From Gemmatimonadales bacterium (GTDB lineage: Bacteria; Gemmatimonadota; Gemmatimonadetes; Gemmatimonadales; JACORV01): a stretch of DNA of 64,000 bases. Location of the stretch: assembly GCA_030697825.1 (NCBI GenBank), contig JAUYOW010000049.1:12221-76220 (forward strand), in the 5' to 3' direction. The number at the start of each line of letters is the position of its first letter. Position 1 is the first letter of the stretch. The position numbers and the translations under genes were made by a program. The notes under the pieces are model-generated. The model was not told the DNA's origin, made no database searches, and worked only from the letters and a program-made list of their open reading frames with translations. Below are positions 755 to 40,298 of this stretch, piece after piece.

Positions 755-755
755 G

Positions 756-1262: not shown

Positions 1263-1265
1263 CGG

Positions 1266-1781: not shown

Positions 1782-1783
1782 CC

Positions 1784-2077
1784 GTGCTCGGGCCGTCACT
1801 CGCCGTCTCGGCGATCCTCTTCTCCCTCGGTGTCGTCGGCGTCCTGCTTCGGCGCAACGCGATCGTGATCTTCATGTGCATCGAGCTGATGCTCAATGCG
1901 GTGAACCTCACCTTCGTCGCTCTGTCGCAACAGCTGGGGCTCGACGGCCAGGTGTTCGTGTTCTTCGTCATGACGGTCGCCGCCGCAGAGGCCGCCGTTG
2001 GGCTCGCGATCATCATCGCTCTCTACCGCCATCGCGACACCCTCGACCTCCAGAACATGAACTTGCTGCGCGGGTGA
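1784..2077 (+). CDS. nuoK: NADH-quinone oxidoreductase subunit K
   Basis: 97-aa three-helix protein (..[15 protein letters not shown].. / [12 protein letters not shown]) typical of NuoK/ND4L. Confidence 0.88.
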
Positions 2078-4050
2078 ACCCACTCACCGGCACCGCGGCC
2101 GACTACGTCGGCCTGGCGATCCTCCTGCCGTTCCTGGGCTTCCTGGTGAACGGCGCCCTCGCGTTCGCGCGCCCGAATGACCAGCGCGTCGTCAGCATCG
2201 TGGGCGTCGGGTCGGTCGCGGCCGCTTTCGTGGTGGCGGTGCTGGTCTTCCTCGCGGTGCTGGGCAAGCACCCGGAGGAACCGTACGTCCGGAGCTTCTG
2301 GACCTGGATGGCCGCCGGAGACCTGGAAGTGCGCGCCGCGCTCCAGGTGGACCAGCTGTCGGTCGTGATGATGCTGGTGGTCACGGGGGTGGGCGCGCTG
2401 ATCCACGTCTTCAGCGTCGGGTACATGCACGATGACCCGGGGTACGCACGCTACTTCGCGTACCTCAACCTCTTCATCGCGTTCATGCTGGTGCTGGTGC
2501 TGGGCGCGAGCTTCCCGGTGCTCTTCATCGGATGGGAGGGCGTGGGTCTCTGCTCCTACCTGCTGATCGGCTTCTGGTTCACGGACCGGCAAAAGGCCGC
2601 GGCCGGGCTGAAGGCCTTCGTGGTGAACCGCATCGGCGACTCCGGCTTCCTGGTCGCGATGTTCCTGCTGTACCGGCACCTCGGCACGCTGGACTTCGTC
2701 GCGGTGAACGCGCTCGCGCCCGAGCGGCTCACCGCGGCGGGGCCGACGGTCACTGCGATCGCCCTGCTCCTCTTCCTGGGTTGCGCCGGGAAGTCGGCGC
2801 AGATCCCGCTCTACACCTGGCTGCCCGACGCGATGGCCGGCCCCACTCCGGTCTCCGCGCTGATCCACGCCGCGACGATGGTGACGGCGGGCGTCTTCCT
2901 GGTGGCGCGGGCCGGCATCCTGTTCGCGATGGCGCCGACGGCGGGCGCGGTGGTGGCCGGCGTCGGCGCGGTCACGGCGCTCTTCGCGGCCACGATCGGC
3001 CTCAAGCAGTGGGACATCAAGAAGGTGCTCGCCTACAGCACCGTCTCGCAGCTGGGCTACATGTTCGTCGGGGTCGGCGTCGGCGCCTACAGCGCCGGCA
3101 TCTTCCACCTGGTGACGCACGCCTTTTTCAAGGCGCTGCTCTTCCTGGGCTCGGGGAGCGTGATCCACGCGCTGCACCACGCGTACCACCAGACCGATCG
3201 CCACGCCGATCCGCAGGACATGCGGAACATGGGCGGCCTGCGGCACGCCCTCCCGATCACGTTCAAGACGATGGGGATCGCGACCCTGGCCATCGCGGGG
3301 ATCCCGCCGCTGGCGGGGTTCTTCTCGAAGGACGAGATCCTGGCCTCCGCGTTCGCCCGCGGGTCGGAGCATCCTTTCTGGTACCTGGTGTGGGTGGTGG
3401 GCGCGGTCGCGGCGCTGCTCACGGCCTTCTACATGACCCGGCTCATGCTCTACACCTTTTACGGCCCGAACCGCACCGGTGAGGCCGAGCAGCCGCACCT
3501 CAAGGAATCGCCGAAGGTGATGACCGTCCCGCTGGTGGTGCTCGCCGCGCTCACCGTCCTGGGCGGCGCGGTCAACCTGCCGCACGTGGGATCGTTGCAC
3601 CACTGGCTCGAGCCGGTGACCGGTCGCGCCGCGCAGTTCCTGGGGGAGGCCGTGCCGTCCCTCGGCCTGGAGCTAGTGCTGATGGCGATCGCGGTGGTCC
3701 TCGCGGTCGCGGGCATCCAGCTCGCCCGGACGCGGCTGCGGCCGGAGCGGCTCGTGCCGGCCGACCAGGCGCCGCCGGAGCGGGGATTCGAGCGGCTCCT
3801 GCTCGAGAAGTACCGCGTGGACGAGCTGTACGACGCCGTCGTCGTGCGGCCCGTCGTATGGCTGTCGCGGGTGGTCCTTTGGAAGGGAGTCGACGCCGGC
3901 GCGATCGACGGGGCCGGCGTCAACGGTTCCGCGGCCGTGGCGCGCGCGCTGGGCTGGCTTGGCAGCCGCCTGCAGACCGGCCAGGTGAGTTCGTACGTCC
4001 TCTTCTTCGTCCTCGGCGCGCTGGCGGTACTCGGCGCGATGGCCCGGTAG
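2074..4050 (+). CDS. nuoL: NADH-quinone oxidoreductase subunit L
   Basis: GTG at 2074 overlaps the nuoK stop (GTGA). The upstream 66 codons of the 1876 ORF overlap nuoK in another frame and are Arg/Pro-rich, so that start is rejected. ND5-type motif [15 protein letters not shown]. Confidence 0.9.
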
Positions 4051-4055
4051 CTGGC

Positions 4056-5606
4056 ATGCAGGCATTCCTCACCAACGTCGGCTACGCGCGCTGGGCGATC
4101 ACGGCGCTCCTCCTCATCCCGATGGCCGGCGCACTCATCATCCCGGGGTTGCCCACCCGCCTGGCGAAGCGCGTGGCGCTGTTTGTGACGCTGGTCGAGT
4201 TGGTGGTCTCGCTGGGCCTCTGGTGGGCGTACGATCCTTCCGGCGGGGCGTTCCAGCTCACCGCCACGGCGCCGTGGATCCCGGCGTGGGGCATCGCCTA
4301 CCGGGTGGCGATCGACGGCATCTCGCTCGCGATGGTTCTGCTCACGACCTTCCTCATGCCGCTCGCGGTGCTGGGGAGCTGGAGCGGCATCACGACGCGG
4401 GAGCGGTCGTTCTACAGCCTCATGCTAGTGCTCACCTCCGGCATGATTGGGGTGTTCGTCGCGACCGACCTGTTCCTCTTCTACGTGTTCTGGGAGGTGA
4501 TGCTGATCCCGATGTACTTCATCATCGGGGTCTGGGGCGGCAGGGGCCGGCTCTACGCGAGCATCAAGTTCTTCGTGTACACGATGCTCGGCTCGCTGCT
4601 CATGCTGGTCGCCATCCTCTACCTGTACTACAACGCCTACCGAACCGCCGGCGGGCCACCCTCCTTCGCGTACGACCGGATCCTCCAGCACGCCTCGGTG
4701 CCCATCGGCGCGCAGTTCTGGCTCTTCGCGGCGTTCTTCCTCGCGTTCGCCATCAAGGTGCCGATGGTGCCGTTCCACACCTGGCTCCCCGACGCGCACG
4801 TCGAGGCGCCGACGGCGGGTTCGGTCATCCTGGCGGGCATCCTCCTGAAGATGGGCACCTACGGCTTCATCCGCTTCGCGCTGCCGTTCTTCCCGCGAGT
4901 CGCCTTCGACCCGACGGTGAGCGCCGTCGTCATCACGCTGGCTGTGATCGGCATCGTATACGGGGCCCTCGTCGCGATGGTGCAACCCGACTTCAAGAAG
5001 CTGATCGCGTACTCGTCGGTGAGCCATATGGGGTTCGTCGTACTGGGCATCTGGGCACTCACCGTGGAGAGCGTCCAGGGCGCTCTGATGGTCATGATAA
5101 GCCACGGTATCTCGACCGGGGCGCTGTTCTTCCTGGTGGGCATGATCTACGAGCGGCGGCACAGCCGGATGATCGGCGACTTCGGCGGGATCGCGCGGGT
5201 GGTGCCGGCGTTCGCGGCCGTGCTCACCATCGTCAGCCTGTCGTCCATAGGGCTCCCCGGGACCAACGGCTTCGTCGGCGAGTTCCTGGTGCTGCTCGGC
5301 TCGTTCAAGACCCACCCGGTGGCCGCCGGGATCGCCACCACGGCCGTGATCCTCGCTGCCGCTTACCTGCTGTGGGCGCTGCTGCGCATGCTCTACGGCC
5401 CACTGGACAAGAAGGAGAACGAGTCGCTGACGGACCTCACGCCGCGCGAGTACGCGATCCTGGTCCCGCTGCTGGCCATGATCTTCTGGCTCGGCCTTTC
5501 GCCGGGGCCGATGCTGCGCAGGATGGAGCCGTCGGCGCGGAACTTCATCGAGTCGGTGCAGGGACCGGCCGGCGACGTGCGGGTCGCCGACAGGGAGCGC
5601 CGATAA
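4056..5606 (+). CDS. nuoM: NADH-quinone oxidoreductase subunit M
   Basis: ATG 4056 lies 5 nt after the nuoL stop. ND4-type motifs FWEVMLIPMYFIIGVWGG and WLPDAHVEAPTAGSV. Confidence 0.9.
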   Translation: MQAFLTNVGYARWAITALLLIPMAGALIIPGLPTRLAKRVALFVTLVELVVSLGLWWAYDPSGGAFQLTATAPWIPAWGIAYRVAIDGISLAMVLLTTFLMPLAVLGSWSGITTRERSFYSLMLVLTSGMIGVFVATDLFLFYVFWEVMLIPMYFIIGVWGGRGRLYASIKFFVYTMLGSLLMLVAILYLYYNAYRTAGGPPSFAYDRILQHASVPIGAQFWLFAAFFLAFAIKVPMVPFHTWLPDAHVEAPTAGSVILAGILLKMGTYGFIRFALPFFPRVAFDPTVSAVVITLAVIGIVYGALVAMVQPDFKKLIAYSSVSHMGFVVLGIWALTVESVQGALMVMISHGISTGALFFLVGMIYERRHSRMIGDFGGIARVVPAFAAVLTIVSLSSIGLPGTNGFVGEFLVLLGSFKTHPVAAGIATTAVILAAAYLLWALLRMLYGPLDKKENESLTDLTPREYAILVPLLAMIFWLGLSPGPMLRRMEPSARNFIESVQGPAGDVRVADRERR

Positions 5607-5607
5607 C

Positions 5608-7128
5608 ATGCCGCTCGATCTAGATACCGGACGCGGCCTCGCCGTCGGGCTGTTGCCCGAGATCATCCTGAGTGGCTGGGCGATGCTGCTGCTGCTGGTC
5701 GCCGCGTGGCGTCACCGCGAGCCGGGCGCGCAGCGCCAGCTGGGCTGGCTCAGCGTGGCAGGCCTGACGCTCACATCGGTGGTCGTCGCGTGGCTGTGGG
5801 CGAAGGGCGTGCACGCCGAGGGCCTGACGACCTCGATGGCGGTGGACGCGTTCCGGTGGGCGGTGGACCTCATCGTCCTGCTGGGCGCGGCGCTGACGAT
5901 CCTCCTCTCGATCGGGTACCTCGACCGTGAGGGGATCCAGGTCCCCGAGTACCACATCCTCGTCCTCTTCGCCACGGTCGGGATGATGCTCCTGGCCGGC
6001 GGGGCGGACCTCTTCGTGATCTTCCTCGGACTCGAGCTGATGTCGGTCTCGGTGTACGTGCTCGCCGGGATCAACCGGAGGAGTGCCGTCGGCGCCGAGG
6101 CGGCGCTGAAGTACTTTCTGCTCGGGGCGTTCGCCTCCGCGTTCTTCCTGTACGGAATCGCGCTGGTCTACGGGGCGACCGGCACGACCAAGCTCGCGGT
6201 GATGGGCATGCAGGTGAGCAGCCTCGGGGTCGCGAAGCACCCGATGCTCGTGGCCGGCCTCGGGCTCCTCTTCATCGGCTTCGCCTTCAAGGTCGCTGCC
6301 GTGCCTTTCCATATGTGGGCGCCCGACGTATACGACGGCGCTCCTTCGCCGGTCACGGCCTTCATGGCCGCGGCGGTGAAAGCCGCGGCGTTCGGCGCCT
6401 TCGTGCGGCTGCTGCTGATGGGGTTCTCGAGCATGCACCCGAGCTGGGACGTCGTCATCTGGTGGCTGGCCGCGGTGACGATGGCGGTCGGGAACCTCGT
6501 CGCGTTGGCGCAACGCAACCTGAAGCGCATGCTGGCCTACTCGAGCGTCGCCCACGCGGGTTACCTGCTGACCGCGCTGGTCAGCGGATCGCTCGCCGGG
6601 GCGGCGGCGTTCCTCTTCTACCTCTTGTTCTACACGCTCATGACGGTGGGTGCCTTCGCCGTGCTCATCGCCAAGGGCCGGGGAGGCGAGCGTGACGTCA
6701 CGACCGACGACCTCGCCGGCCTGGCCGAATCCGACCCGTGGCTCGCGTTCGTCATGGCCGTGTGCATGCTCTCACTGCTGGGTTTCCCGGGTACGGCCGG
6801 GTTCATCGGCAAGTGGTACATCCTGACGTCCGCTACGGGGAGCGGGTATGCGGTGCTGGCCGCGGTCCTGGTCCTGACGAGCGTGGTCTCGGCGGGCTAT
6901 TATCTCCCGGTCATCATGGCCATGTACATGAAGCCCCGGCTCCACGAGCAGGCGCACGCTGAGGTGAAGCTCCCGGGCCTGGTGCGCGGGATGCTCGTGG
7001 CCGTCGTGGCGGCCCTGCTCCTGTTCGGCGTGTGGCCCAACGAGGTGTTGAAGGCGGCGCGCGACGGCTCGCACGCCTTCCTGCCGGCGAGCGCCGCGGT
7101 CGTCGCCTCGCCCATGGCCACCCACTAG
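5608..7128 (+). CDS. nuoN: NADH-quinone oxidoreductase subunit N
   Basis: ND2-type antiporter-like subunit (LGLELMSVSVYVLAG, FHMWAPDVYDGAPSPVTAF). Last gene of the nuo run. Confidence 0.9.
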   Translation: MPLDLDTGRGLAVGLLPEIILSGWAMLLLLVAAWRHREPGAQRQLGWLSVAGLTLTSVVVAWLWAKGVHAEGLTTSMAVDAFRWAVDLIVLLGAALTILLSIGYLDREGIQVPEYHILVLFATVGMMLLAGGADLFVIFLGLELMSVSVYVLAGINRRSAVGAEAALKYFLLGAFASAFFLYGIALVYGATGTTKLAVMGMQVSSLGVAKHPMLVAGLGLLFIGFAFKVAAVPFHMWAPDVYDGAPSPVTAFMAAAVKAAAFGAFVRLLLMGFSSMHPSWDVVIWWLAAVTMAVGNLVALAQRNLKRMLAYSSVAHAGYLLTALVSGSLAGAAAFLFYLLFYTLMTVGAFAVLIAKGRGGERDVTTDDLAGLAESDPWLAFVMAVCMLSLLGFPGTAGFIGKWYILTSATGSGYAVLAAVLVLTSVVSAGYYLPVIMAMYMKPRLHEQAHAEVKLPGLVRGMLVAVVAALLLFGVWPNEVLKAARDGSHAFLPASAAVVASPMATH

Positions 7129-7167: not shown

Positions 7168-8550
7168 ATGCGAGTCGATCCGGTCATCTTCCGCCAGTAC
7201 GACATCCGCGGCACCGTCGGAGTGGATCTCACGCCCGACGTTGCCCGCGCCATCGGACTGGCCGTGGGCTCCGAGTCTCGCCAGCGTCTTGGTCGCATCC
7301 CCACGCTTGCCGTGGGGCGAGACAACCGTCCGAGCGGCGAAGCACTGGTCGGCGCGCTCACCGAGGGACTGATCGCCACCGGAGCAAAGGTGCTCTCGGT
7401 CGGTCTCGTCCCCACTCCCACGTTGTACTTCGCCATCCACCACCTGCGTGCCGACGGAGGCGTTCAGGTCACCGGCTCGCACAACCCGCCGGAGTTCAAC
7501 GGTTTCAAGATGGTGCTCGATGGCCTGCCGTTCGCCGGCGATGACATCCAGGGGCTGCGAGCGCGCATCGAGGCGGAGCGCTTTACGGCGGGAAGTGGCG
7601 CCGTCCTGAGCCACGAGGTTCTCGACGCCTATCGTGACGAGGTCGTGCGCCGAGTCGGCAAATTGCCGCGCCGGGTGCGCGCCGTCGTGGACTGCGGCAA
7701 CGGCACCGCCTCCGTGGCGGCGCCGGAGTTGCTGAGGGCGCTGGGGGCCGACGTTATCGAGCTCTTCTGCGAGTCGGACGGCAGCTTCCCGAACCACCAC
7801 CCCGATCCGACCGTCCTGCACAACCTCGAGGACCTGCGCGCCACGGTGAAGCGCGAGCGCGCCGAGTTGGGGATCGCCTTCGACGGCGACGGCGACCGCA
7901 TCGGCGCTGTGGACGAGAGGGCGGATGTGCTCTTCGGCGACCAACTCCTGGTGATCTACGGCCGGGACATGACCCGCCGCCTCGGACCGGGCCGCGAGGT
8001 CATCTTCGACGTGAAGTGCTCCGACCTGCTCCCGATGGCGCTGGAGCAAGCCGGCGCGCGGCCGGTCATGTGGATGACGGGTCATTCGTACATCAAGACC
8101 AAGATGAAGGAGTCGGGCGCTCCGCTGGCCGGCGAGATGAGCGGCCACATGTTCTTCGGCCCGCCGGACTACCTCGGCTTCGACGACGCTCTGTATGCCG
8201 CGGCGCGGCTCCTCAAGATCGTCGCCGAGCGGCAAGGTCCGATGTCGGGGCTCCTGGCCGACCTGCCTCGCTACGTGTCCACCCCGGAGATCAGGGTGGA
8301 CTGCGCGGAGGACCGGAAGGTGAAGGCGGTGGCGGCGGCGGCACGCCATTTCTCCGCCCGCTACCCGACGATCACCATAGACGGCGTGCGGTGGCGCGCC
8401 GAAGACGGATGGGGACTGATCAGGGCCTCGAACACCCAACCCATACTCGTCCTCCGCTTCGAGGCCCGAACCGCCGAGGGGCTGGGCCGCATTCGCCGGG
8501 AGGCACTCGACGTACTCGCGGCGGAGGGGGTGAGCGTCCCGGGCCAATGA
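7168..8550 (+). CDS. phosphomannomutase/phosphoglucomutase family enzyme
   Basis: Phosphoserine loop VTGSHNPPEFNGFKM and Mg site AFDGDGDRIGAVDE. 460 aa. Confidence 0.87.
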   Translation: MRVDPVIFRQYDIRGTVGVDLTPDVARAIGLAVGSESRQRLGRIPTLAVGRDNRPSGEALVGALTEGLIATGAKVLSVGLVPTPTLYFAIHHLRADGGVQVTGSHNPPEFNGFKMVLDGLPFAGDDIQGLRARIEAERFTAGSGAVLSHEVLDAYRDEVVRRVGKLPRRVRAVVDCGNGTASVAAPELLRALGADVIELFCESDGSFPNHHPDPTVLHNLEDLRATVKRERAELGIAFDGDGDRIGAVDERADVLFGDQLLVIYGRDMTRRLGPGREVIFDVKCSDLLPMALEQAGARPVMWMTGHSYIKTKMKESGAPLAGEMSGHMFFGPPDYLGFDDALYAAARLLKIVAERQGPMSGLLADLPRYVSTPEIRVDCAEDRKVKAVAAAARHFSARYPTITIDGVRWRAEDGWGLIRASNTQPILVLRFEARTAEGLGRIRREALDVLAAEGVSVPGQ

Positions 8551-11189
8551 GCCGGCGCCGTGTCGCGGGACTCCTCGTCGTCGCCGTCCTCGTCACGCTG
8601 TTCGGGGGCCGGTGGGTGGCGCTCCGGTACACCGAGCATGCCTGGTATTCCGACCTAGGCCTCGCCCGTCAATTCTGGGTGCTGCTGCTTCGGGCGGCAG
8701 GATGGCAGCTCGGCGTCGTCCTCGCGGCGACGGGGTGGTACGCGGCGCACACCCTCGGCGTGTATCGCTCGATCGGGTCGGTCCACCTCCCGCGCCGCGT
8801 AGGTAACCTCGAGATCGCCGAGCAAGTGCCGCGTCACCTCCTCCGTCTGGTCGCGCTCGGCGTCGCGCTCCTCCTCGGCGTCGCCACCGCCTACAGCTTC
8901 TCCGACGTTGATCACCTCGTCGCACTCTACCGCCACGCGGTCCCGCTAGGGTTCACCGAGCCCGTACTCCAGCGCGACGCGTCGTTCTATCTCGCCCGGC
9001 TCCCGCTGCTCGAGACCCTGAACATGCTGGCGGCGATCTCGGTGCTGCTGGCGAGCGCACTCACGGTGGGACTCTACGCGCTCACCGGCAACCTGTCGGT
9101 CGCGCAGCGCCGGCTGCGGATCACCCCGCACGCGCGCACTCACGTGATCCTGCTCATGACCGTCACCGCGCTCGTGGTGGCCTGGGCGTTCCATCTCGAC
9201 GCCTACCAACTCGTCGGCGGGGGCGGTTCCGTGCAGGGGGCGCTTTCGGCCGTGGACCGCGCCATCCGGATCCCCGCGTCCACGTCGCTTGCCATCATCG
9301 CGCTGATCGTCGCGGCGGGCACGGTGTCGGCCCTGCGATGGATGCGCCCCGGCGTCCTGATCGGCCTGTGGGCTACGCTCGTCGCGGCCTCGCTCCTGGG
9401 TCGTTTCGTCGTGCCGTTCCTCGCCGAAGGGTGGGGCGCGCCGGGTGGACCAGGGGTCGCGCAGGCGCTTGCCAGCTACGCGGACGGTTACTCACGGGTC
9501 GGGTTCGGGTTGCTGGAGGTGCGCGGAAAGGCACTCCCGGCGACGCCCGAGCTGACGCCCGAGAGCGCCGGCCGCCTCGCCGCCGAGCTGGAGGGCGTCT
9601 CGCCGTGGAGCGGAGAGCCGGGGATACTGGAGGCGCTGGTCTCTGCCTCCGCACCGGCGGACACGGCGCGGGTGCAGGCGTGGACCGTGAGCGTGGGGCG
9701 GCTTGCTGGGGCGTCGGGCGCAGAGTGGCTTGCCGCGCTGGCCGTCCCTCAGACCGACCCGCTCCGCGCCGCGCGGCTCACGCCGAGGCCGCGCTGGGCG
9801 GCGCTCCACCGCGGCGCCCTGGCATGGGGCGGGGAGCCGATAGCGTTGAACGCCGGTGGGGGCGGTTCCCGAAACCTTGCGTCGCTGGATCCCCTGGACA
9901 CGGCGTCGGGAGCGGTGCCCGTGGCGCGCGCCCCGGGCCGCATCCGCTTCCTGCCGCGCGCGGCCGAGCTGGGCGTCGTCGGCCCCGACGAGGGGACGGT
10001 TCTCGAGCCGCCGCCCGGCCTTCTGCTGGGAACCTTCGTGCGGCGACTCCTCTTCGCTTGGGCGTTGCAAGCGCCGCCCTTGCTCGACGACCACACCAGC
10101 GCCGCCGATCGAGTGATCTTCTGGCGCGATGTGCCCTCGCGTCTCGCCCGGCTCTATCCTTTTGCGGCGTTCGACGCACCGCGGGCCGCCCTGGTGGGGG
10201 GAAGGCTCGTGTGGATCGTGGACGGATATCTAGCGTCTTCCCGGTTCCCGCTCGGCGAGTACGTCCGCTGGCACGGTGACAACGTCAATTTCCTGACCGC
10301 CCCGTACGTAGTGACTGTGGACGCCGTGACCGGCTCCACTCGCCTCTACCTGCGCGGGACCGGGCTCGCCTTCGCCGCCGAAGTGGCTCGCGGCGAGGGC
10401 ACGGAGGCGCTCCCGAGCGATAGCATGAGCGCCGACCTGCGCCGGCGCCTGGACTACCCTCTCGGGTTGTTCGGAGCGCAGGCCGCGATGCTGGCGCGTC
10501 GGGGTGACGACAGCGCCCGCGGCGAGCGCCGCTGGGCTCTCGCCGCACGAGACAGCGGCGTGGCGTCCGCCGGCGACGCGGCACTGCTCCGGCCGGCGGT
10601 CGCGCTGCTGGCTCTCGGTGAGGCCGAGCGCCGGCTGTGGTATCTCCTGCCGCTCACCGACGCCGCCGGCAACCGGCTCGCCGCGATCGTCGCGGCGACC
10701 GGCGGGGAGGACGGTTCGCTCCGGCTGGAGCTGCTGCGCTTGCCCGAAGGGTTCCCCACGCCTTCGGCCGCCGCGAGCCGCCTGTCCTCGGCGCCGGCGG
10801 TCCTGGCGGCATCAGCCGCGGCCTCCGGCCCCGAAGGCGCGGTGCGCCGGGGACCGGTCTTCCCGGTACCGGCGGCAGGAACCATAGCTTACCAGCAGGT
10901 GATCTACGGCTCGACGCACCGCACCGCCAAACCTCTGAGCGTACGCGCCGTCGCCTTGGCCGTGGGCGGCCGCGTCGGCGTCGGATCGGACGCCGCCTCG
11001 GCGGCGCGGGCGCTGGAGCGCGGCGAAACGGGCGGCGGAGATTTCGGCGCCGGGATCTCGCTGGCGGTGGCACGCGCCGCATTCCTGTCGCTGGATTCCG
11101 CGGTCCGGCGCGCCGATTGGGCTGAGTTCGCGCGGGCATATGCGGTCCTTCGCCGTGCGCTCGGGGTGGGCGTCGGGGAGCGGCCTTGA
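8547..11189 (+). CDS. UPF0182 family large membrane protein
   Basis: ATG 8547 overlaps the upstream stop (ATGA). N-terminal multi-TM region beginning RYTEHAWYSDLGL, and the family-typical GGRLVWIVDGYLASSRFPL block. 880 aa. The ORF start at 8016 is rejected. Confidence 0.75.
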   Translation: MSRRRVAGLLVVAVLVTLFGGRWVALRYTEHAWYSDLGLARQFWVLLLRAAGWQLGVVLAATGWYAAHTLGVYRSIGSVHLPRRVGNLEIAEQVPRHLLRLVALGVALLLGVATAYSFSDVDHLVALYRHAVPLGFTEPVLQRDASFYLARLPLLETLNMLAAISVLLASALTVGLYALTGNLSVAQRRLRITPHARTHVILLMTVTALVVAWAFHLDAYQLVGGGGSVQGALSAVDRAIRIPASTSLAIIALIVAAGTVSALRWMRPGVLIGLWATLVAASLLGRFVVPFLAEGWGAPGGPGVAQALASYADGYSRVGFGLLEVRGKALPATPELTPESAGRLAAELEGVSPWSGEPGILEALVSASAPADTARVQAWTVSVGRLAGASGAEWLAALAVPQTDPLRAARLTPRPRWAALHRGALAWGGEPIALNAGGGGSRNLASLDPLDTASGAVPVARAPGRIRFLPRAAELGVVGPDEGTVLEPPPGLLLGTFVRRLLFAWALQAPPLLDDHTSAADRVIFWRDVPSRLARLYPFAAFDAPRAALVGGRLVWIVDGYLASSRFPLGEYVRWHGDNVNFLTAPYVVTVDAVTGSTRLYLRGTGLAFAAEVARGEGTEALPSDSMSADLRRRLDYPLGLFGAQAAMLARRGDDSARGERRWALAARDSGVASAGDAALLRPAVALLALGEAERRLWYLLPLTDAAGNRLAAIVAATGGEDGSLRLELLRLPEGFPTPSAAASRLSSAPAVLAASAAASGPEGAVRRGPVFPVPAAGTIAYQQVIYGSTHRTAKPLSVRAVALAVGGRVGVGSDAASAARALERGETGGGDFGAGISLAVARAAFLSLDSAVRRADWAEFARAYAVLRRALGVGVGERP

Positions 11190-11232
11190 ACGCCATGGGG
11201 TGCGGCCCTACTTTGCGCCGCCGGACCAGCCC

Positions 11233-12183
11233 ATGACGGAGCGAACGGTCGTGATCGCCCTCGGCGGCAATGCCCTGGCGCCAGCCGGCGAGCGGCCGAC
11301 CATCGCCACCCAGTTCCGCCACACCCGCGAGAGCCTGGCGCCGGTGGTGACACTGGCGCGGGACGGCTGGCGCATCGCCGTGGTGCACGGCAACGGCCCG
11401 CAGGTCGGCGACTCGCTCGCGCGCAACGAGATCGCGGCCGGCGACGTCGAGCCATTGCCGCTGGGAGTGCTGGTGGCTGAGACCGCCGGTTGGATCGGCT
11501 ACATGATCCAGCAGTCGCTCCGGAACGCGCTCGACCGGGCCGGCATCGACCGCGACGTCGTCACTGTGATCACCCAGACGGTCGTGGAGGCGGACGACCC
11601 GCTGCTCCGCAAGGCGACGAAGCCCATCGGGCACCCGCTACCGCCCGAAAGGCTCGCGGAGCTGAAGCGACGCGGTGTCCCGGTGGGGTCCGGCGGCGGC
11701 GAAGGGTGGCGCCGGCTGACGTCGAGTCCGGTGCCGATCGGCGTGGTGGAGAGCGAGGTGGTGCGGCGCCTGATGGAGGCGGGGACGATCGTGATCGCCG
11801 CGGGGGGCGGCGGCCCGCCGGTCTACCGCGACGCTTCGCTCGGGTGGGAAGGGGTGGACGCTGTGGTGGACAAGGATCGCACGGCGGCGATCCTGGCCCG
11901 CGGGCTGGGGGCCGAGTTCCTGCTCATCCTCACCAACGTGGACGCCGTGTACCGCGACTTCGGCACCGATCGCGCCCGCCCGGTCCGGCGCATGACGATC
12001 GGTGAAGCCGAGGCGATGCTGGCGTCCGGAGTGTTCGGTGAAGGCAGCATGGGGCCGAAGGTGGAGGCCGCGCTCGCGTTCGTGCGAGGCGGGGGCGGGC
12101 GGGCGGTGATCGCGGAGCTGGGCGCCGGTCCCGCGGCGATGCGTGGCGAAGCGGGGACAACGATCATGGCCGAGGGCCGATGA
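11233..12183 (+). CDS. arcC: carbamate kinase
   Basis: VVIALGGNALAPAG and VVHGNGPQVG motifs of the amino-acid-kinase fold / carbamate kinase. 316 aa. Confidence 0.82.
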   Translation: MTERTVVIALGGNALAPAGERPTIATQFRHTRESLAPVVTLARDGWRIAVVHGNGPQVGDSLARNEIAAGDVEPLPLGVLVAETAGWIGYMIQQSLRNALDRAGIDRDVVTVITQTVVEADDPLLRKATKPIGHPLPPERLAELKRRGVPVGSGGGEGWRRLTSSPVPIGVVESEVVRRLMEAGTIVIAAGGGGPPVYRDASLGWEGVDAVVDKDRTAAILARGLGAEFLLILTNVDAVYRDFGTDRARPVRRMTIGEAEAMLASGVFGEGSMGPKVEAALAFVRGGGGRAVIAELGAGPAAMRGEAGTTIMAEGR

Positions 12184-13328
12184 ACTTGCACGAGTATCAG
12201 GCGCGCGAGCTGTTGAGGCGGGCGGGGATCCCGGTACCGCCGGACGGAGTCGCGACGACAGCAAGGGAAGCCAGGCAGGTCGCCGAACGGCTCGGCGCCG
12301 GCCGGGTCGTGGTCAAGGCGCAGGTCCACGCTGGAGGGCGAGGCAAGGCGGGGGGCGTCAAGCTCGCTTCATCGCCGGAAGAGGCGGAACAGGTCGCGGC
12401 GAAGATCCTCGGCATGACGATCAAGGGCCTGACGGTCCACCGGGTGTTGATCGCCCCGGCCGCCGAGATCGCCAGCGAGGCGTACGTGGGCGTGATAGTG
12501 GACCGTGCCTCGCAGTCGCCGGTGTTCATGGTTAGCCCCGCGGGCGGGATCGACATCGAGGAAGTGGCAGCCACCACCCCGGAGAAAATCTTCCGCTGTC
12601 GCGTGGACGCCCGTTACGGACTCCTTCCGCACCAGGCGCTGGGCCTGGCGTTCCGCCTGTACGGCGACGTCGGCATGGCGAGACAGGCGGCCGACATCCT
12701 GGGGAAGCTCTACCGCGCCTTCGTGGACGCCGGCGCCTCCCTCGCGGAGATCAACCCGCTGGTGAAGACGCCCGGTGGCGAAATCGTGGCGCTGGACGCC
12801 AAGATCGCCGTGGACGACAACGAACTGGACCGGCGGCCCGAGATCTCCGCGCTGCGCGACTCGACCGCCGAAGAGCCGTCGGAGGTCCAGGCGCGCGAGG
12901 CCAGCCTCACCTACATCAAGCTCGACGGCGATGTAGGCTGTGTGGTCAACGGCGCCGGACTCGCGATGGCCACCATGGACCTGGTGAAGTACTACGGTGG
13001 AGAGCCCGCTAACTTCCTCGACATCGGCGGGTCTTCCAACCCCGAGAAGGTCGTGAGCGCGCTCCGCATCATCACCGCCGACCGCCACGTGAAGGCCATC
13101 CTCTTCAACATCTTCGGCGGGATCACCCGCTGCGACGACGTGGCCAACGGCATCGTCACGGCTACGAAGCAGTTCAAGGTTGACCGCCCCATCGTGATAC
13201 GCCTGACGGGCACCAACGAGAAGGAAGCGATCGCGATCCTGAACGGCGCCGGCATGAAGGCGCTGACCGACATGGACGAAGCGGTGAAGCAGGCCGTGGC
13301 GCTCGCGAAGGGAGCGGCGGCCGCGTGA
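12180..13328 (+). CDS. sucC: succinyl-CoA synthetase beta subunit
   Basis: [13 protein letters not shown]-terminus and [19 protein letters not shown]-grasp motif. ATGA overlap with arcC. Confidence 0.95.
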
Positions 13329-14194
13329 GCGTGTTCGTCAACGAGAAGACCCGCCTGGTGGTGCAGGGCATCACCGGCCGCGACGGTTCCTTCCACACCA
13401 AGCAGATGATCGCCTACGGCACGCGGGTGGTGGCCGGCGTGACACCGGGCAAGGGCGGGCAGCGGTTCGAGGGCACGGTCCCGATCTTCAACACGGTCGC
13501 GGAAGCGGTAACCGAAACGGGCGCCAACACCTCCGTGATCTACGTGCCCGCGAAGTTCGCCGCCGACGCGGTCTTCGAGGCGGCCGACGCCGGGATCGGG
13601 CTCGTGGTATGCATCAGCGAGGGCGTCCCGGTCCTCGACATGACGCGCGTGTACCCGTACGTGAAGGAGCGGGGCGCGCGGCTCATCGGCCCGAACTGTC
13701 CCGGCCTCATCACGCCGGGCGTCGCGAAGGTAGGCATCATCCCCGGGCAGATCTGCGCGCCCGGCCCGATCGGCGTCGTGTCGCGCTCGGGTACGCTCAC
13801 CTACGAGGTGGTCTACCAGTTGACGCGCGCGGGCCTCGGCCAGACCACCTGCATCGGCATCGGCGGCGACCCGATCATCGGCACCAACTTCATCGACTGC
13901 CTCGAGGCCTTCCAGGCCGATCCGGCCACGACGGCGGTCGTGATGATCGGAGAGATCGGCGGCACCGACGAGCAGCTGGCCGCCGACTTCGTCAAGGCGA
14001 AGATGACCAAGCCCGTAGTGGGCTTCATCGCCGGGCAGACGGCTCCGCCGGGGCGCCGGATGGGCCATGCCGGCGCGATCATCTCCGGTTCCTCAGGCAC
14101 CGCGGCCGAGAAGATGACGTCCTTCGAGCGCGCGGGGATCTCCGTGATGAAGCGGCCCGCCGACGTGGTGCCGTTGCTGAACGAGCGCCTGTGA
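13325..14194 (+). CDS. sucD: succinyl-CoA synthetase alpha subunit
   Basis: [13 protein letters not shown] and phosphohistidine loop [14 protein letters not shown] overlap with sucC. Confidence 0.95.
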
Positions 14195-15105
14195 ACCTCG
14201 GCGAGCTGCTGGATGCGAATCGGCTGATCGTGCCCCTCAAGGCACGCAACGTCCGCGACGCGACGACCCAGCTCGCGCAGACGCTGGTACGTTCCGGCGC
14301 CGTCGCCGACGAGGCGCGGCTCAAGGAGCTGCTGAAGAGCGAGTGGCCGGAGGACATCGTGTCGGTGGGCGGGAGGGCGTTCCTCCCCCACTTCCGCACC
14401 GACGCGGCGCGCTCGCTGGCGCTCGCGCTCGGCGTGTCCGCCACGCCGCTCTGCCTGGGCGACGACCCCAACCGGTGCGCGCGCGTGATCGTGCTGATCG
14501 TAGCGCCGACGGCGGAGTCGTCCGCGTACCTTCGGGCGATGGCCGCCGTCGCCCGGGTCCTCTCGTCGGACGAAGTGCTCGACGGGCTGCACCGCGCGAC
14601 CGGCCCGGCAGAGGTCCTTGCCCTCCCGGGTCTGGGCGGTGCGTTGGTGCCGAGCGACGTCGCCGTGCGCGACGTCATGACGGCCGGCGTCACCCACGTG
14701 ACGCCGGACATGAAGCTGCGCGATGCGGCCCAGGTGCTGTTGCGACGAGGCGTGAGCGCGGTCCCGGTGACCGGCCCGGGCGGCGAGGTGGTGGGCATGC
14801 TCACCGACCAGCACTTGATGCGCTATCTGCTGCCGCAGACCGTGAGCCAACTGAGCACCGGCCAGATGCGCGCCGTGAAGCGGCGCGCGAAGGGCGCGGC
14901 TGCGGGTGTCGTCGAGCCGGGCGACGTTCCGGTTCGAGACGTGATGGAGCGAACCGTGATGTGCCTCGCGGAGGACCAGACGATCGCCGACGTCGCGGCG
15001 CTCATGCTGTCGAAGGAGTTGGACCGTTTTCCCGTCACCCGCGACGGGGCCCTGGTGGGCTTCCTCACCCGGGGTGACATCGTTCGCAAATTGCTGGGAG
15101 CTTGA
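14191..15105 (+). CDS. PTS EIIA(Ntr)-like (EIIA type 2) domain fused to a CBS pair
   Basis: GTG 14191 overlaps the sucD stop. The N-terminal ~150 aa resemble PtsN, including the VGGRAFLPH His loop. They are followed by two CBS repeats ([16 protein letters not shown].., [16 protein letters not shown]..). Confidence 0.75.
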
Positions 15106-15522
15106 ATGCTGACTCTGGCGATCATCAAACCGGACGCCGTGGCCGCCGGCAAGGCCGGCAAGGTACTGGCGCACCTCGAACAGTCGGGCTTCGCGATCCG
15201 CGCGGCCACCTTCATCCAGCTCACCACCGCCCAGGCCGAGGCGTTCTACGCCGTCCATCGGGACCGCCCGTTCTTCCGGCCCCTGGTGACCTTCATGACG
15301 TCGGGCCCCTGCATGCCCCTCGCGCTCGAACGGGATGACGCAGTGCTCAAGCTGCGGGAGGTCATCGGCGCGACCGACCCGAAAGAGGCGGCCCCCGGCA
15401 CCGTTCGGGCCCTCTTAGCCGAATCGAAGGAGCGGAACGCGATCCACGCCTCCGACAGCGAGGATAACGCCAGGTGGGAGGTCGGTTTTTTCTTCGCCGA
15501 GGCCGCGCTGATCAACACCTAG
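15106..15522 (+). CDS. ndk: nucleoside diphosphate kinase
   Basis: TLAIIKPDAV and catalytic His motif NAIHASDS. 138 aa. Starts the base after the preceding stop. Confidence 0.95.
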   Translation: MLTLAIIKPDAVAAGKAGKVLAHLEQSGFAIRAATFIQLTTAQAEAFYAVHRDRPFFRPLVTFMTSGPCMPLALERDDAVLKLREVIGATDPKEAAPGTVRALLAESKERNAIHASDSEDNARWEVGFFFAEAALINT

Positions 15523-15556
15523 CAGTCTTAATGCCAACGGGTTAGCTTCACCGGCT

Positions 15557-16078
15557 ATGTTGCGCGTCGACCTCGCTGACGTGCGGGTCGGTGCGGCGGA
15601 AACCGTCGGTCGGCTTGCCGATGATGACCCCGTGCTGGCCGAAGTTGGGCCGGACATCGCCCTGGTCGCCCCGGTTCTGGTGAAGGGGAGGCTGAGCGCT
15701 GCCGGAGAAGGGAAGTATTACTGGCGCGCCAGGCTGGAGACGGCCGTGCGCGCCCCATGCCGTCGTTGTCTGAATCCGGTGGACGTGCCCCTGGAGGCGT
15801 CCCTGGCCATCGTTTTTGTCCCCGAGGACGAGGCCGCCGAGGACGACGGGTGCTACGTCATCCCGGCCCGGGCCAAGACGCTGGATTTGACGGAAGTGGT
15901 GCGGGAGGAGTTGATTCTGACGCTCCCGCACTTTGTGGAGTGCCGGCCCGATTGCCGCGGGCTGTGTCCGAAATGCGGCGCCAACCTGAACGACGGTCCG
16001 TGTGGCTGCGCGCCCGCGGGTGATCCGCGGTGGGACGCATTGCACGCGCTGACAAAACCCGAACGAAAGAACCACTGA
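15557..16078 (+). CDS. yceD: YceD/DUF177 family protein (23S rRNA accumulation protein)
   Basis: Cys motifs CRRCLNPV and [23 protein letters not shown]. Conserved position directly upstream of rpmF-plsX. Confidence 0.85.
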
Positions 16079-16085
16079 GGCGATC

Positions 16086-16265
16086 ATGGCTGTTCCCAAG
16101 AGACGGACCTCCAAATCGAAGAAGCGCATGCGCCGAACGCACTACAAGGCCAAGGCGCCCACCCTGTCGCCCTGCCCGAAGTGCGGCGAGGCGCGCCGCC
16201 CCCACTACGTTTGCGGGAACTGCGGCTTCTACAACGGCGAGAAAAGGCTGGAGATCGAGGACTGA
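16086..16265 (+). CDS. rpmF: 50S ribosomal protein L32
   Basis: Not in the ORF track (59 aa). Read from sequence as [59 protein letters not shown]. Confidence 0.92.
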
Positions 16266-16270
16266 CTGGC

Positions 16271-17275
16271 GTGATCCGGGTCGCTATCGACGCGATGGGC
16301 GGGGACCACGCCCCCGCAGCGCCGGTTTCCGGCGCCGCGCTGGCGCTTTGTGAGGTCCCCGGCGACTTCGTGATCCAACTGGTCGGCCGGCCCGAAGCGA
16401 TAGAGGCCGAACTGACCAAGCAGCACGTCGACCACTCCCGGATAGAGGTGGTGGACGCCCCTGAAGTGATCGGGATGGCGGAGAAGCCACTTCAGGCCGT
16501 GCGCAGCAAGCGCAAGTCCTCTATAGCGTTAGGTCTTTCCCTCCAGAAAGAGGGGAAGTCGGATGCCTTCATCAGCGCTGGAAACACCGGCGCCGTGATG
16601 GCGGCATCCACCCTCATTCTCAAGCTTTATCCCGGCTTCGAGCGCCCCGCCATCGGGACACCGTTCCCGACCTCCGACAGGATCGTCCTGGTCCTGGACG
16701 GCGGCGCCAACGTGGATTGCTCCCCGCAGGAGCTGGTCGGCTTCGCCCACCTGGGTGTGCTCTACGCGCGCGACGTGATGGGGAAGGCCGATCCGGCCGT
16801 GGGTCTGCTGAACATCGGCGAAGAGGAAGAGAAGGGAAACGTCGCCACGAAGGAGGCGCACCGCCTGCTTACAGAGAGCGGACTCAGGTTCGTCGGGAAC
16901 ATCGAGGGAGACGACATCCTTCTCGGCAAGTGCGAGAAGGGCGAATTCGACGTGGTGGTGTGCGACGGGTTCGTGGGCAACGTGCTGCTCAAGTTCTACG
17001 AGTCGGTAGCCAAGCTCTTCCACCAGCTGGTGATCAGGGATTTGGGCGCCGAGGTCGCGGGCGGCGACGCGATGAAGCGGATATGGCACTCGCTCGACTA
17101 CGCCCAGTACGGGGGCGCCCCGCTGTTGGGCGTCAAGGGCGTTTCGATCATCTGCCACGGGCGCTCGTCTCCCGCGGCGTTCAAGGCCGCGGTAAAGGTC
17201 GGCGTGGAGGCCGCCCGGCACCACCTGGTCCAGCACATGACGAGCGAGTTCTCCGCGGGGAGCCTGGCGAGGTGA
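16271..17275 (+). CDS. plsX: phosphate acyltransferase PlsX
   Basis: GTG 16271. N-terminus IRVAIDAMGGDHAP. The ORF start at 16181 overlaps rpmF and is rejected. Confidence 0.92.
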   Translation: MIRVAIDAMGGDHAPAAPVSGAALALCEVPGDFVIQLVGRPEAIEAELTKQHVDHSRIEVVDAPEVIGMAEKPLQAVRSKRKSSIALGLSLQKEGKSDAFISAGNTGAVMAASTLILKLYPGFERPAIGTPFPTSDRIVLVLDGGANVDCSPQELVGFAHLGVLYARDVMGKADPAVGLLNIGEEEEKGNVATKEAHRLLTESGLRFVGNIEGDDILLGKCEKGEFDVVVCDGFVGNVLLKFYESVAKLFHQLVIRDLGAEVAGGDAMKRIWHSLDYAQYGGAPLLGVKGVSIICHGRSSPAAFKAAVKVGVEAARHHLVQHMTSEFSAGSLAR

Positions 17276-18258
17276 AACGGCCCATCGCCGCGTTCGCTGG
17301 CCTGGGCACGTACAGCCCGGAGCGGGTCCTGACCAACGCCGACTTCGAGAAGATGCTGGACACGTCGGACACGTGGATCCGCGAGCGGACCGGCATCCGG
17401 GAACGGCACATCGCGGAACCCGACCAGACCACGGCGCTCATGGCGCGCGACGCCAGCCTCCAGGCGATGACGGAAGCGGGCCTGGGGCCGGAAGACATCG
17501 ACACCATTATCCTTGCCACCGCGACGCCGGACCGCCTGCTGCCGTCGGTGGCGTGCGACCTCCAGGCGCTGCTCGGCGCGAAGAACGCCACCGCTTTCGA
17601 CATCTCGGCTGCGTGTTCGGGTTGGGTCTACGGCTTGGTGGTCGGCGAGGCGATGATCGCCGCGGGCACGGGCGAGCGCGTGCTCGTCCTCGGCGCCGAA
17701 AAGCTGAGCGCTATCACCGACTACACGGACCGCTCGACGGCCGTGCTCTTCGGGGACGGGGCGGGCGCGGCGGTGCTGACCAAGGCTACCGGAGACCGCG
17801 GAATCCTCTCGAACTATCTCAGGACCGACGGCACCCTCGCGGAGCTGCTGTGGCGCCCGGGCGGCGGCACGATCCACCCTCCCAGCGAGGAGATGATCAA
17901 GGACCACAGCTACTTCATCAAGATGGCGGGCCGGGAAGTCTTCAAGAACGCGGTGCGTTCGATGGCGGACGCGGCCGGCAAGGCACTGGAGCGCGCCGGG
18001 CTGACCGGCGACGACGTAGACCTCCTGGTCCCGCACCAGGCCAACATCCGCATCATCGAGGCCACTGCCGAGCACGCGCACATCCCGAAGGAGCGCGTCT
18101 ACGTCAACGTGGACCGATACGGCAACACCAGCTCCGCGTCCATCCCGAACGCGCTCTCCGAGGCCCGCACGTGCGGCCGGCTCGAGCCCGGGATGGTCGT
18201 GCTGCTGGTCACTTTCGGCGCCGGGTTCACTTGGGGATCGCTCGTTCTCCGGTGGTGA
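17272..18258 (+). CDS. fabH: 3-oxoacyl-ACP synthase III
   Basis: GTGA overlap with plsX. DTSDTWIRERTGIRERH, and the active-site Cys in DISAACSGWVYGL. Confidence 0.93.
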   Translation: MKRPIAAFAGLGTYSPERVLTNADFEKMLDTSDTWIRERTGIRERHIAEPDQTTALMARDASLQAMTEAGLGPEDIDTIILATATPDRLLPSVACDLQALLGAKNATAFDISAACSGWVYGLVVGEAMIAAGTGERVLVLGAEKLSAITDYTDRSTAVLFGDGAGAAVLTKATGDRGILSNYLRTDGTLAELLWRPGGGTIHPPSEEMIKDHSYFIKMAGREVFKNAVRSMADAAGKALERAGLTGDDVDLLVPHQANIRIIEATAEHAHIPKERVYVNVDRYGNTSSASIPNALSEARTCGRLEPGMVVLLVTFGAGFTWGSLVLRW

Positions 18259-25417: not shown

Positions 25418-26035
25418 GTGCTGACCTGGCTCGCCGGGCTGCCGCCGCAGGGGATCTATGGCGCGCTGGCCCTGCTCGCCGCCCTGGAGAACATCGTGCC
25501 CCCCGTGCCCGCCGACCTGGCGGTGGCATTGGGGGCTTTTCTCGCCGCGCGGGACGACGCGCCGGTCTCGGTCACCGCCGTCTACATCGTGACCGTGGTG
25601 GCGAACGTCACGACCGCGATCGGGATGTACGCGGTCGCGCGCACCGTGGGGAAGAGCTTCCTCGAGTCCCGCACCGGGCAGCGCCTGCTCTCGGCGCGGT
25701 CGAAGGCGGCGCTGGAGCGAGAGTATCAGAGGCACCACCTCTGGGGGATCTTCGTTTCACGCTTCCTCCCCGGGTATCGTGCCGTGGTGCCGCCGTTCGC
25801 GGGCATGATCGGGCTGCCGGCCTCGAAGGCGCTTCCGCCCGTGATCCTCGCCACCGCCATCTACTACGCGGTGCTCGTCTGGGGTGCCCACCGGGTGGGA
25901 CAGAATTGGGAGTCGGTGCGGGCGTGGCTCGGCCACATCGGCATCGGCTTAGGGCTCGTCGCGATCGCCGTCACGTTGGTCGTGGGCTGGCTGGTCTGGC
26001 GTGCCCGGCGGCGAAGGACCGTGGATGGCGACTGA
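25418..26035 (+). CDS. DedA/YqaA-type membrane protein
   Basis: ENIVPPVPADL motif plus 4-5 TM helices. GTG 25418 was chosen as start; an in-frame CTG at 25406 is also possible. The ORF start at 24749 is rejected. Confidence 0.7.
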   Translation: MLTWLAGLPPQGIYGALALLAALENIVPPVPADLAVALGAFLAARDDAPVSVTAVYIVTVVANVTTAIGMYAVARTVGKSFLESRTGQRLLSARSKAALEREYQRHHLWGIFVSRFLPGYRAVVPPFAGMIGLPASKALPPVILATAIYYAVLVWGAHRVGQNWESVRAWLGHIGIGLGLVAIAVTLVVGWLVWRARRRRTVDGD

Positions 26036-26945
26036 GACCGGCCCCGGCCCCGACCCGCGCGCCTTCCTGCTCGAGCAGTTCGCGGACTACCTTTCGCTCG
26101 AGCGCGGCTCGTCACCCAACACGCTGGCGGCCTACCGGCGGGACTTGGCGCACCTGACGGACTTCCTCGCGACCCGCCGAGTCCGAGCGCCCTCGGGCGT
26201 TACCTCCACGCTGCTCAGGGACTTCATCTTTCACTTGAAGGACCTGGGGCTCGAGGCCTCCAGCATCCGCCGCCACATCTCGGCCACGCGCACGTACTTC
26301 AAGTTCCTGGCTGGTGAAGGGCACGTCATCCGCGACCCGAGCGACCGGCTGGCGAGTCCCAAGCGCTGGCGCACGCTGCCGGCCGTGCTCTCAATCACGG
26401 AGATGGAGCGTCTGCTCGCCGCTCCCAGCGCCGACGACCCGCTGGCCCGGCGCGACCGGGCGATCCTCGAGTTCGCCTACGCCACGGGCGCCCGCGTCAC
26501 GGAGCTGACTCGCGTCGCGCTGCGGGACGTGCTGTTCGATGATGGGCTGGTCCGCCTGTTCGGGAAGGGGAACAAGGAGCGCATCGTGCCGGTAGGAAGG
26601 CGGGCTCTGGGGGCCGTGGCGCTGTACGCTCGCGAAGTACGCCCCAGGATCGAGCGCGGGAAGGGGCAGGGGATCCTGTTCCTGAACGCCCGCGGCGGGC
26701 CGATGTCGAGGGTTGGGGTGTGGGGGATAATCAAGCGATGCGCCCGGGTGGCGGGCATCAGCAAGCGGGTAACGCCTCATACCCTGCGCCACACTTTTGC
26801 CACGCATCTCCTCGAGGGCGGGGCGGACCTCAGGGCCGTCCAGGAGATGCTGGGCCACGCAGACCTAAGCACCACACAGGTTTACACGCACGTGGACCGA
26901 GACTACCTTCGTAGCGTCCATAAGACCTATCATCCCCGCGCTTGA
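26025..26945 (+). CDS. xerD: site-specific tyrosine recombinase XerD
   Basis: NTLAAYRRDL, GKGNKERIVPVG and HTLRHTFATHLLEGGADLRAVQEMLGHADLSTTQVYTHV. The C-terminus ends in HPRA, as in E. coli XerD. Confidence 0.82.
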   Translation: MATETGPGPDPRAFLLEQFADYLSLERGSSPNTLAAYRRDLAHLTDFLATRRVRAPSGVTSTLLRDFIFHLKDLGLEASSIRRHISATRTYFKFLAGEGHVIRDPSDRLASPKRWRTLPAVLSITEMERLLAAPSADDPLARRDRAILEFAYATGARVTELTRVALRDVLFDDGLVRLFGKGNKERIVPVGRRALGAVALYAREVRPRIERGKGQGILFLNARGGPMSRVGVWGIIKRCARVAGISKRVTPHTLRHTFATHLLEGGADLRAVQEMLGHADLSTTQVYTHVDRDYLRSVHKTYHPRA

Positions 26946-34859: not shown

Positions 34860-34888
34860 TTGACAGTCCTACGCCGAAGCATTAGGTT
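34860..34888 (+). promoter_or_regulatory. candidate sigma-70 promoter of the kdsB...dapF operon
   Basis: TTGACA (34860-34865), 17-nt spacer, TAGGTT (34883-34888). Lies about 40 nt upstream of the kdsB GTG, in the only sizeable gap upstream of a 16-kb gene chain. Confidence 0.35.
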
Positions 34889-34926
34889 GCTGGTGTGATT
34901 CTTGCCTGCGCGCGCGAGTTTTAGCT

Positions 34927-37354
<2,428 letters not shown>

Positions 37355-37355
37355 C

Positions 37356-40297: not shown

Positions 40298-40298
40298 G

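Follow-up and report, generated by a model that had tools for sequence, protein, structure and literature searches.

The DNA analysed here is a stretch of 64,000 nucleotides from a Gemmatimonadales bacterium (contig JAUYOW010000049.1, positions 12,221 to 76,220 of the forward strand), referred to below as the window, with a G+C content of 69%. Between the genes for succinyl-CoA synthetase and nucleoside diphosphate kinase it carries a gene, here called X (14191..15105, + strand; GTG start, TGA stop), that encodes a 304-residue protein in which a type-2 EIIA fold of the phosphotransferase system (PTS) is joined to a pair of CBS repeats (Pfam PF00359 and PF00571). Immediately upstream are sucC (12180..13328, +; 496 bits, above cut-off), encoding the beta subunit of an ADP-forming succinyl-CoA synthetase, and sucD (13325..14194, +; 450 bits, above cut-off), encoding the alpha subunit with its catalytic-histidine motif MGHAGA. 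Downstream lies ndk (15106..15522, +; 163 bits, above cut-off), whose product has the catalytic-histidine motif NAIHASD. The GTG of gene X at 14191-14193 shares four nucleotides (GTGA) with the sucD stop codon at 14192-14194, and its own TGA at 15103-15105 is followed on the very next base, 15106, by the ATG of ndk, exactly as described in an earlier reading of this stretch from its sequence (the original prediction). The start of sucC is in turn overlapped by four nucleotides by the stop of a carbamate-kinase-like gene (11236..12183, +), which matches TIGR00746 over its full length with 299.8 bits, under the cut-off of 358 bits, and which is probably the first gene of the sucCD-X-ndk operon. 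The carbamate-kinase-like gene, sucC, sucD, X and ndk form a tight run of five genes with 4-nt overlaps or zero gaps. A promoter and terminator scan of positions 10800-17400 gave no promoter-like site and no terminator-like site on the + strand, an outcome that is compatible with a single transcript but otherwise uninformative, and an Rfam scan of the window gave no leader or riboswitch near the operon, the sole matches being two tRNA genes on the - strand (52279-52353 and 60668-60739).

Two alternative views of the open reading frame itself were considered and rejected. The 498-residue frame that opens at 13609 reads through sucD as an artefact of high GC content; the first residue of each of the 26 aligned homologues corresponds to the codon at 14191. 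That gene X is a spurious high-GC frame is ruled out by hundreds of length-conserved homologues with conserved motifs.

The N-terminal domain (residues 6-144; 14206..14622, +) belongs to the EIIA type-2 class (Mtl/Fru/Ntr). It matches positions 2-139 of the 144 positions in the Pfam profile PTS_EIIA_2 (E 2.6e-14; 53.9 bits against a gathering score of 27), and a profile built from 27 family members matches the solved EIIA structure 3oxp_A over residues 3-145 in a search of PDB sequences (E 2.9e-8). Since a fold search with the full-length AlphaFold2 (AF2) model (mean predicted local distance difference test, pLDDT, 84.9) returned CBS pairs only, the N-terminal domain was modelled alone. The AF2 model of residues 1-150 has a pLDDT of 93.3, and its top Foldseek matches in the PDB are all EIIA structures, with template modelling (TM) scores of 0.74-0.80: EIIA-Ntr of Neisseria and Burkholderia (2a0j, 3urr and 4gqx; 0.79-0.80), Escherichia coli EIIA-Mtl (1a3a; 0.77) and a Yersinia EIIA (3oxp; 0.74). 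The cytoplasmic domain of Band 3 is also among the matches, a domain with an EIIA-like fold for which, to our knowledge, no histidine phosphorylation is known. The profile and fold searches thus bear out the EIIA fold that the original prediction had proposed next to a CBS pair, and Pfam finds both domains.

The phospho-acceptor histidine of EIIA domains is His65 in EIIA-Mtl and His73 in EIIA-Ntr. In X, the corresponding loop VGGRAFLPH is present, as had been noted earlier, and its histidine, His67 (codon CAC, 14389..14391, +), aligns with His73 of E. coli PtsN and is the candidate phospho-acceptor. The stretch R-A-F-L-P-H-F-R that includes His67 is invariant in 27 of 27 sequences of the clade to which the window belongs, and the histidine is kept by all 121 members of the 55%-identity cluster containing the X of the window. 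The second active-site histidine (His111 in EIIA-Mtl, His120 in EIIA-Ntr) is replaced by Tyr113 (14527..14529, +). The original prediction had called the domain EIIA(Ntr)-like. Its assignment to EIIA type 2 stands, but the nitrogen-type label is too specific, because X reaches 15.8 of the 138.7 bits that the PtsN equivalog model TIGR01419 requires, and scores higher (31.5 bits; cut-off 103.5) with the fructose IIA model, the best EIIA match in NCBIfam. X is a generic type-2 EIIA and no PtsN orthologue.

The C-terminal half consists of two CBS repeats (PF00571; E 9.4e-27, 93.5 bits, best stretch residues 159-214). CBS1 spans residues 159-214 (14665..14832, +) with the motif GMLTDQH, placed by Pfam and motif alignment, and CBS2 residues 246-300 (14926..15090, +) with the motif GFLTRGD, where NCBIfam CBS models match over residues 245-301. 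A basic linker within the pair (residues 218-239; 14842..14907, +) has a pLDDT below 50 and varies in length among homologues. This half of the full-length model superposes on CBSX2, ST2348, HRP1, AcuB and MJ0922 (Foldseek E ~1e-11 to 1e-10), and TM scores against CBS pairs, normalised by target length, are 0.5-0.9. The ribose/phosphate-binding motif of CBS repeats is G-h-h-(T/S)-x-x-(D/N), and CBS2 of X follows it in the canonical form G-h-h-T-x-x-D. From these motifs, the pair is predicted to hold one canonical adenosyl-ligand site and one altered site. The model for the c-di-AMP receptor CbpB/DarB, NF041630, gives 22.5 bits on X, below its cut-off of 125.

More than 426 homologues of X were found at E<=1e-5; the best 120 listed share both Pfam domains and are 285-311 residues long, and those that are named all come from Gemmatimonadota or Gemmatimonadales metagenome-assembled genomes (MAGs). 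A scan of GTDB species genomes gave 26 loci, all in Gemmatimonadota, and an exhaustive hidden Markov model (HMM) search of 1.84 billion cluster representatives gave 128 matches at E<1e-30, with ~94 of the 150 best listed matches at full length (270-340 residues). The order sucC-sucD-X-ndk recurs in every Gemmatimonadota locus examined with enough flank (~35), down to ~35% identity, so that the arrangement is not unique to the genome of the window. Where the flank suffices, the 26 GTDB loci have one order by tblastn, namely UPF0182, carbamate-kinase-like, sucC, sucD, X, ndk, yceD and plsX, and distant Gemmatimonadota and Longimicrobiales loci (L028, L030, L032, L034, L037, L039, L040, L041 and L042) have the same order. 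The core sucD-X-ndk is also seen around the distant representatives P0148, P0133, P0165, P0128, P0171, P0196, P0325, P0351 and P0391, of which P0133 and P0165 are from Longimicrobiales or Longimicrobiaceae. Counting the window itself, 23 of the 26 loci of its clade have the 4-nt overlap between sucD and X, whereas a gap of 4-73 nt separates the two genes in other clades. The gap between X and ndk is mostly 0-17 nt. In the window's clade, X is probably translationally coupled to sucD. The original prediction had gone further and spoken of stoichiometric coupling to sucCD and ndk, but the 4-nt overlap points to no more than co-transcription and, probably, translational coupling.

The trio sucD-X-ndk is contiguous throughout, in surroundings that differ between loci. 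Some loci lack the carbamate-kinase-like gene, and in some a holin-like gene, or genes for a 3-hydroxyacyl-CoA dehydrogenase and an acetate kinase, are inserted after ndk. Two loci lacking the candidate phospho-acceptor histidine have 3-hydroxyacyl-CoA dehydrogenase and acetate/butyrate kinase genes between ndk and yceD (L034, 7475-9555; L041, 7407-9529); the kinase is a further enzyme of substrate-level phosphorylation in the cluster. In nearly all of the Gemmatimonadota loci examined, the sucCD cluster is directly preceded by a gene for a large UPF0182 membrane protein (8016-11189, + in the window). Two loci from long-contig MFD metagenome MAGs show frame disruptions in the sucD/X region, the X frame being shifted in L023 and the sucD stop not traceable in L006; these are probably assembly indels rather than pseudogenes.

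The family divides according to the candidate phospho-acceptor. In a sample of 373 full-length relatives, biased in that it combines the top matches of two queries with representatives, His67 is kept in 198 (His+) and lost in 175 (His-), where it is replaced by Ala, Val, Leu or Gln, the first three of these in one large His- clade. The His+ sequences also keep Pro66, Arg69, Thr70, Tyr113 and Leu114, and Asp296 of CBS2 is found in 186 of the 198. Position 113 is Tyr in 179 of the 198 His+ members and Arg or Lys in 149 of the 175 His- members; in the latter, the CBS2 motif is shifted to TRD[A/S/T] and the EIIA domain usually goes undetected by Pfam. The reading that, in the His- clade, CBS1 instead of CBS2 holds the canonical nucleotide site was considered and withdrawn: TRD[A/S/T] replaces TRGD, so that the Asp has moved by one residue and is retained. 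In a rough neighbour-joining tree with its root placed on relatives from outside Gemmatimonadota, the His+ lineages, including the window's clade and Longimicrobiales, form a grade within which the large His- clade is nested; there are sporadic losses besides, such as the change to Gln in P0128 and P0136. His67 is thus ancestral, and is under purifying selection in the lineage of the window. All five His- clade loci examined are positional orthologues, located between sucD and ndk, and the X family can therefore occupy this position without the histidine. Because His67 is lost in a large sister branch at the same locus, phosphorylation cannot be the core of the family mechanism. This weakens the proposal of the original prediction that X is a phosphorylation-responsive regulator. 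In a survey of the carbamate-kinase-like gene (loci L001-L025, L032-L034, L037 and L040-L042), the gene is present in nearly all His+ loci (L003 is the exception) and absent from five of five His- loci, a correlation that is phylogenetically confounded.

The reading that we favour, with a probability of somewhat less than 0.4, is that X is a ligand-sensing regulator encoded in the operon and acting together with its operon partners, for which phosphorylation of the histidine would be an optional, lineage-specific input. X would then be a cytoplasmic two-domain sensor and regulator, the Gemmatimonadota branch of a family that combines an EIIA fold with a CBS pair. The CBS pair (Bateman module) may bind a ligand that contains adenosine, with the canonical site in CBS2 as the likeliest place, and ligand binding would alter the contact of the EIIA-like domain with a partner protein. 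Succinyl-CoA synthetase and/or Ndk from the same transcript would be the most probable partner, with nucleoside triphosphate (NTP) output tuned to the energy state of the cell. Physical association of nucleoside diphosphate (NDP) kinase with succinate thiokinase, with phosphate channelling, has been described (PMC4668074). In the window's lineage, the phosphorylation state of His67 would likely be a second, accessory input, not part of the core mechanism of the family.

Several points weigh against this reading. The proposed regulation of SucCD or Ndk by X is read solely from the order of the genes. Synteny among the Gemmatimonadota loci examined extends over the entire block from PGM to the fab genes, so that the adjacency of X to sucD and ndk could be inherited rather than selected. 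X also evolves much faster than its neighbours: in the most distant loci it is 42-46% identical, compared with 77-79% for SucD, which fits a regulator but does not identify its target. CBS1 is non-canonical in the window's clade, with an invariant His208 at the position of the usual ribose-binding Asp. Finally, the neighbours of the relatives in Zixibacteria, a Na/Ca exchanger and CNNM/CorC, point to a possible ancestral role in ion transport, like that of PtsN.

The combination of EIIA domain and CBS pair is common in Zixibacteria and present in Planctomycetota, so that it is not special to the sucCD-ndk operon: Zixibacteria carry the same architecture beside a Na/Ca exchanger. These relatives have a more canonical loop, G-x-G-h-A-h-P-H-A-R-T-D, and are annotated as 'PTS sugar transporter subunit IIA' or 'nitrogen regulatory IIA component'. 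Two Zixibacteria-type loci (L035/L036 and L043) are linked to nuo genes and have the order nuoLMN, DUF502, X relative, Na/Ca exchanger gene 1-5 nt downstream, and M48 peptidase, followed by a CNNM-CBS-CorC gene past the peptidase where the locus extends far enough. In the window, nuoH-N lies at 2-7128, and X is downstream of it, separated by PGM, UPF0182, the carbamate-kinase-like gene and sucCD. The position downstream of nuo in both groups hints at a shared ancestral location.

These neighbourhoods bear on a first alternative, which we consider doubtful, namely that X regulates ion transport in the manner of PtsN, with its phosphoryl groups supplied by an EI/NPr-type relay whose genes lie elsewhere, and that frozen synteny accounts for its place between sucD and ndk. 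Its targets would be cation transporters, by analogy with the action of E. coli PtsN on TrkA, KdpD and YcgO; control of a K+/H+ antiporter by PtsN is cited in PMC12934123. In favour of this are the closest relatives outside the phylum, in Zixibacteria, which bear the JGI name 'PTS system nitrogen regulatory IIA component' and lie 1-5 nt upstream of the Na_Ca_ex gene, with the CNNM-CBS-CorC gene nearby and nuoLMN and DUF502 just upstream at two independent loci, as well as the position of X downstream of nuoH-N in the window and the retention of His67 in its clade. At none of the Gemmatimonadota loci examined, however, does a transporter gene adjoin X; X also falls short of the PtsN equivalog model, and its conserved 4-nt overlap with sucD speaks for expression coupled to that of succinyl-CoA synthetase.

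A search for the PTS donors also weighs against this alternative. Neither Pfam scans, run on the likely genes, nor tblastn at E<=1 with queries from E. coli and B. subtilis found EI, HPr or NPr in the 64-kb window; the tblastn search also missed X with the E. coli PtsN query, so that a divergent HPr of ~85 residues could have escaped it. The gene rpoN (42868-44331) lies 28 kb from X, and its neighbourhood in the window has no hpf, ptsN, rapZ or npr; glycosyltransferase genes follow it directly. On both counts the original prediction was accurate. The rpoN region (34864-46505, +) contains kdsB, pyrG, kdsA, kdsC, kdsD, two ORFs, an lptB-like ABC ATPase gene, rpoN, and then GT2 and GT4 glycosyltransferase genes. 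The two ORFs (39748-40188 and 40299-41672) have no Pfam match and sit where lptC and lptA are expected. Elsewhere in the window, a gene at 26924-28780 (+) fuses a Ser/Thr protein kinase domain to an FGE-sulfatase (sulfatase-modifying-factor-like) domain, and adjoins a gene for a XerC/D-type integrase (25953-26945) and a gene for a large TPR protein.

A second alternative, which appears unlikely, is that X is a ligand sensor that works independently of phosphorylation, its EIIA fold serving as a protein-binding scaffold (a pseudo-EIIA) and His67 being kept for structure or ligand contact. The 175 sampled relatives without the histidine retain the length and the CBS pair, and the position is the same in the five His- clade loci as well as in a locus with a sporadic change from His to Gln (L039, adjacent to ndk). 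The second catalytic histidine is already Tyr in the X of the window, and the fold search that gave the EIIA structures also gave Band 3. Against a mere scaffold, Pro66, His67, Arg69 and Thr70 are almost invariant in the His+ lineages of Gemmatimonadota, Zixibacteria and Planctomycetota alike, and loss of the histidine coincides with the change of Tyr113 to Arg or Lys and with the shifted CBS2 motif. Such coordinated changes suggest a real functional switch rather than neutrality.

A third proposal places X in a phospho-histidine relay independent of the PTS, where His67 would exchange phosphoryl groups with the phospho-histidine intermediates of SucD or Ndk, and X would act as a phosphoryl buffer or flux reporter gated by the CBS pair according to adenylate status. 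It draws on three consecutive known or candidate phospho-histidine proteins, SucD (MGHAGA), X (LPHFRT) and Ndk (NAIHASD), on the failure to find a PTS donor in the window, on the regulation of the Ndk phospho-histidine through dephosphorylation by SixA, which also acts on NPr (PMC12934123), and on the association of NDP kinase with succinate thiokinase (PMC4668074). If it applied, X would receive its phosphoryl group from a metabolic enzyme instead of HPr or NPr, as the first protein of the EIIA fold to do so, and would serve substrate-level NTP synthesis as an inbuilt regulator or phosphoryl buffer, with the His- clade as its natural 'phospho-dead' derivative. The case is purely circumstantial, however, and the proposal is quite improbable. 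His- orthologues hold the same position without an acceptor residue, phosphorylation of an EIIA domain by a metabolic enzyme has no precedent known to us, and it is disputed whether bacterial Ndk acts as a protein histidine kinase, as has been reported.

EIIA-type regulators such as PtsN and CBS-pair sensors are both well known to couple metabolic state to protein activity, and a fusion of the two embedded in a succinyl-CoA synthetase/Ndk operon is not described in the literature searched, which also gave no relevant paper on PTS components in Gemmatimonadota. Automated annotation already shows the architecture, always under the names 'CBS domain-containing protein' or 'PTS IIA', and no characterisation was found. 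Two features add to its interest: its constant place between sucD and ndk, seen at every Gemmatimonadota locus examined, and the natural division into His+ and His- members. Gemmatimonadota are an abundant phylum of soil, and few of its members have been cultured. If X does regulate SucCD or Ndk, substrate-level NTP production in this phylum would have a dedicated point of control. Orthologues with and without the histidine share one locus and lend themselves to a comparison of what phosphorylation contributes and of how EIIA domains turn into pseudo-EIIA scaffolds.

Among known systems, EIIA-Ntr (PtsN) of Proteobacteria resembles X in its type-2 EIIA fold (TM 0.79-0.80) and in the histidine of the same loop, and X is predicted, like PtsN, to be soluble and regulatory rather than transport-related, with no EIIB or EIIC partner nearby. 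Unlike PtsN, X fails the equivalog model, has Tyr in place of the second histidine and ends in a CBS pair; its gene belongs to the sucCD-ndk operon, apart from rpoN and outside a rpoN-hpf-ptsN-rapZ-npr neighbourhood. With the EIIA-Mtl and EIIA-Fru domains of sugar PTS permeases X shares membership in PF00359 and the fold (TM 0.77 for 1a3a and 0.74 for 3oxp), but it falls far under the family cut-off (31.5 compared with 103.5), lacks an equivalent of His111, and has no EIIB, EIIC, HPr or EI in its neighbourhood. The EIIA-CBS fusions of Zixibacteria and Planctomycetota, likewise uncharacterised, agree with X in architecture, in size (~300 residues), in the motifs P-H-x-R-T and Y-L-Q, and in the location of the gene downstream of nuoLMN; they differ in being only ~22-23% identical to X over the N-terminal domain and in having DUF502, a Na/Ca exchanger, M48 peptidase and CNNM/CorC as neighbours.

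The flanking enzymes of X are the same two that make up the Ndk-succinyl-CoA synthetase complex of P. aeruginosa, reportedly described by Kavanaugh-Black et al. in 1994, although a third, regulatory subunit has not been described in those systems. In its C-terminal half, X superposes on stand-alone CBS-pair regulators such as Arabidopsis CBSX1/2, AcuB, M. tuberculosis HRP1, DarB/CbpB and AMPK gamma, with E values of 1e-11 to 1e-9. CBS-pair regulators act by ligand-dependent binding to partner enzymes, as for DarB and Rel (PMC7900238, PMC9848473). X is distinguished from them by a non-canonical CBS1 and by the addition of an EIIA-fold domain.

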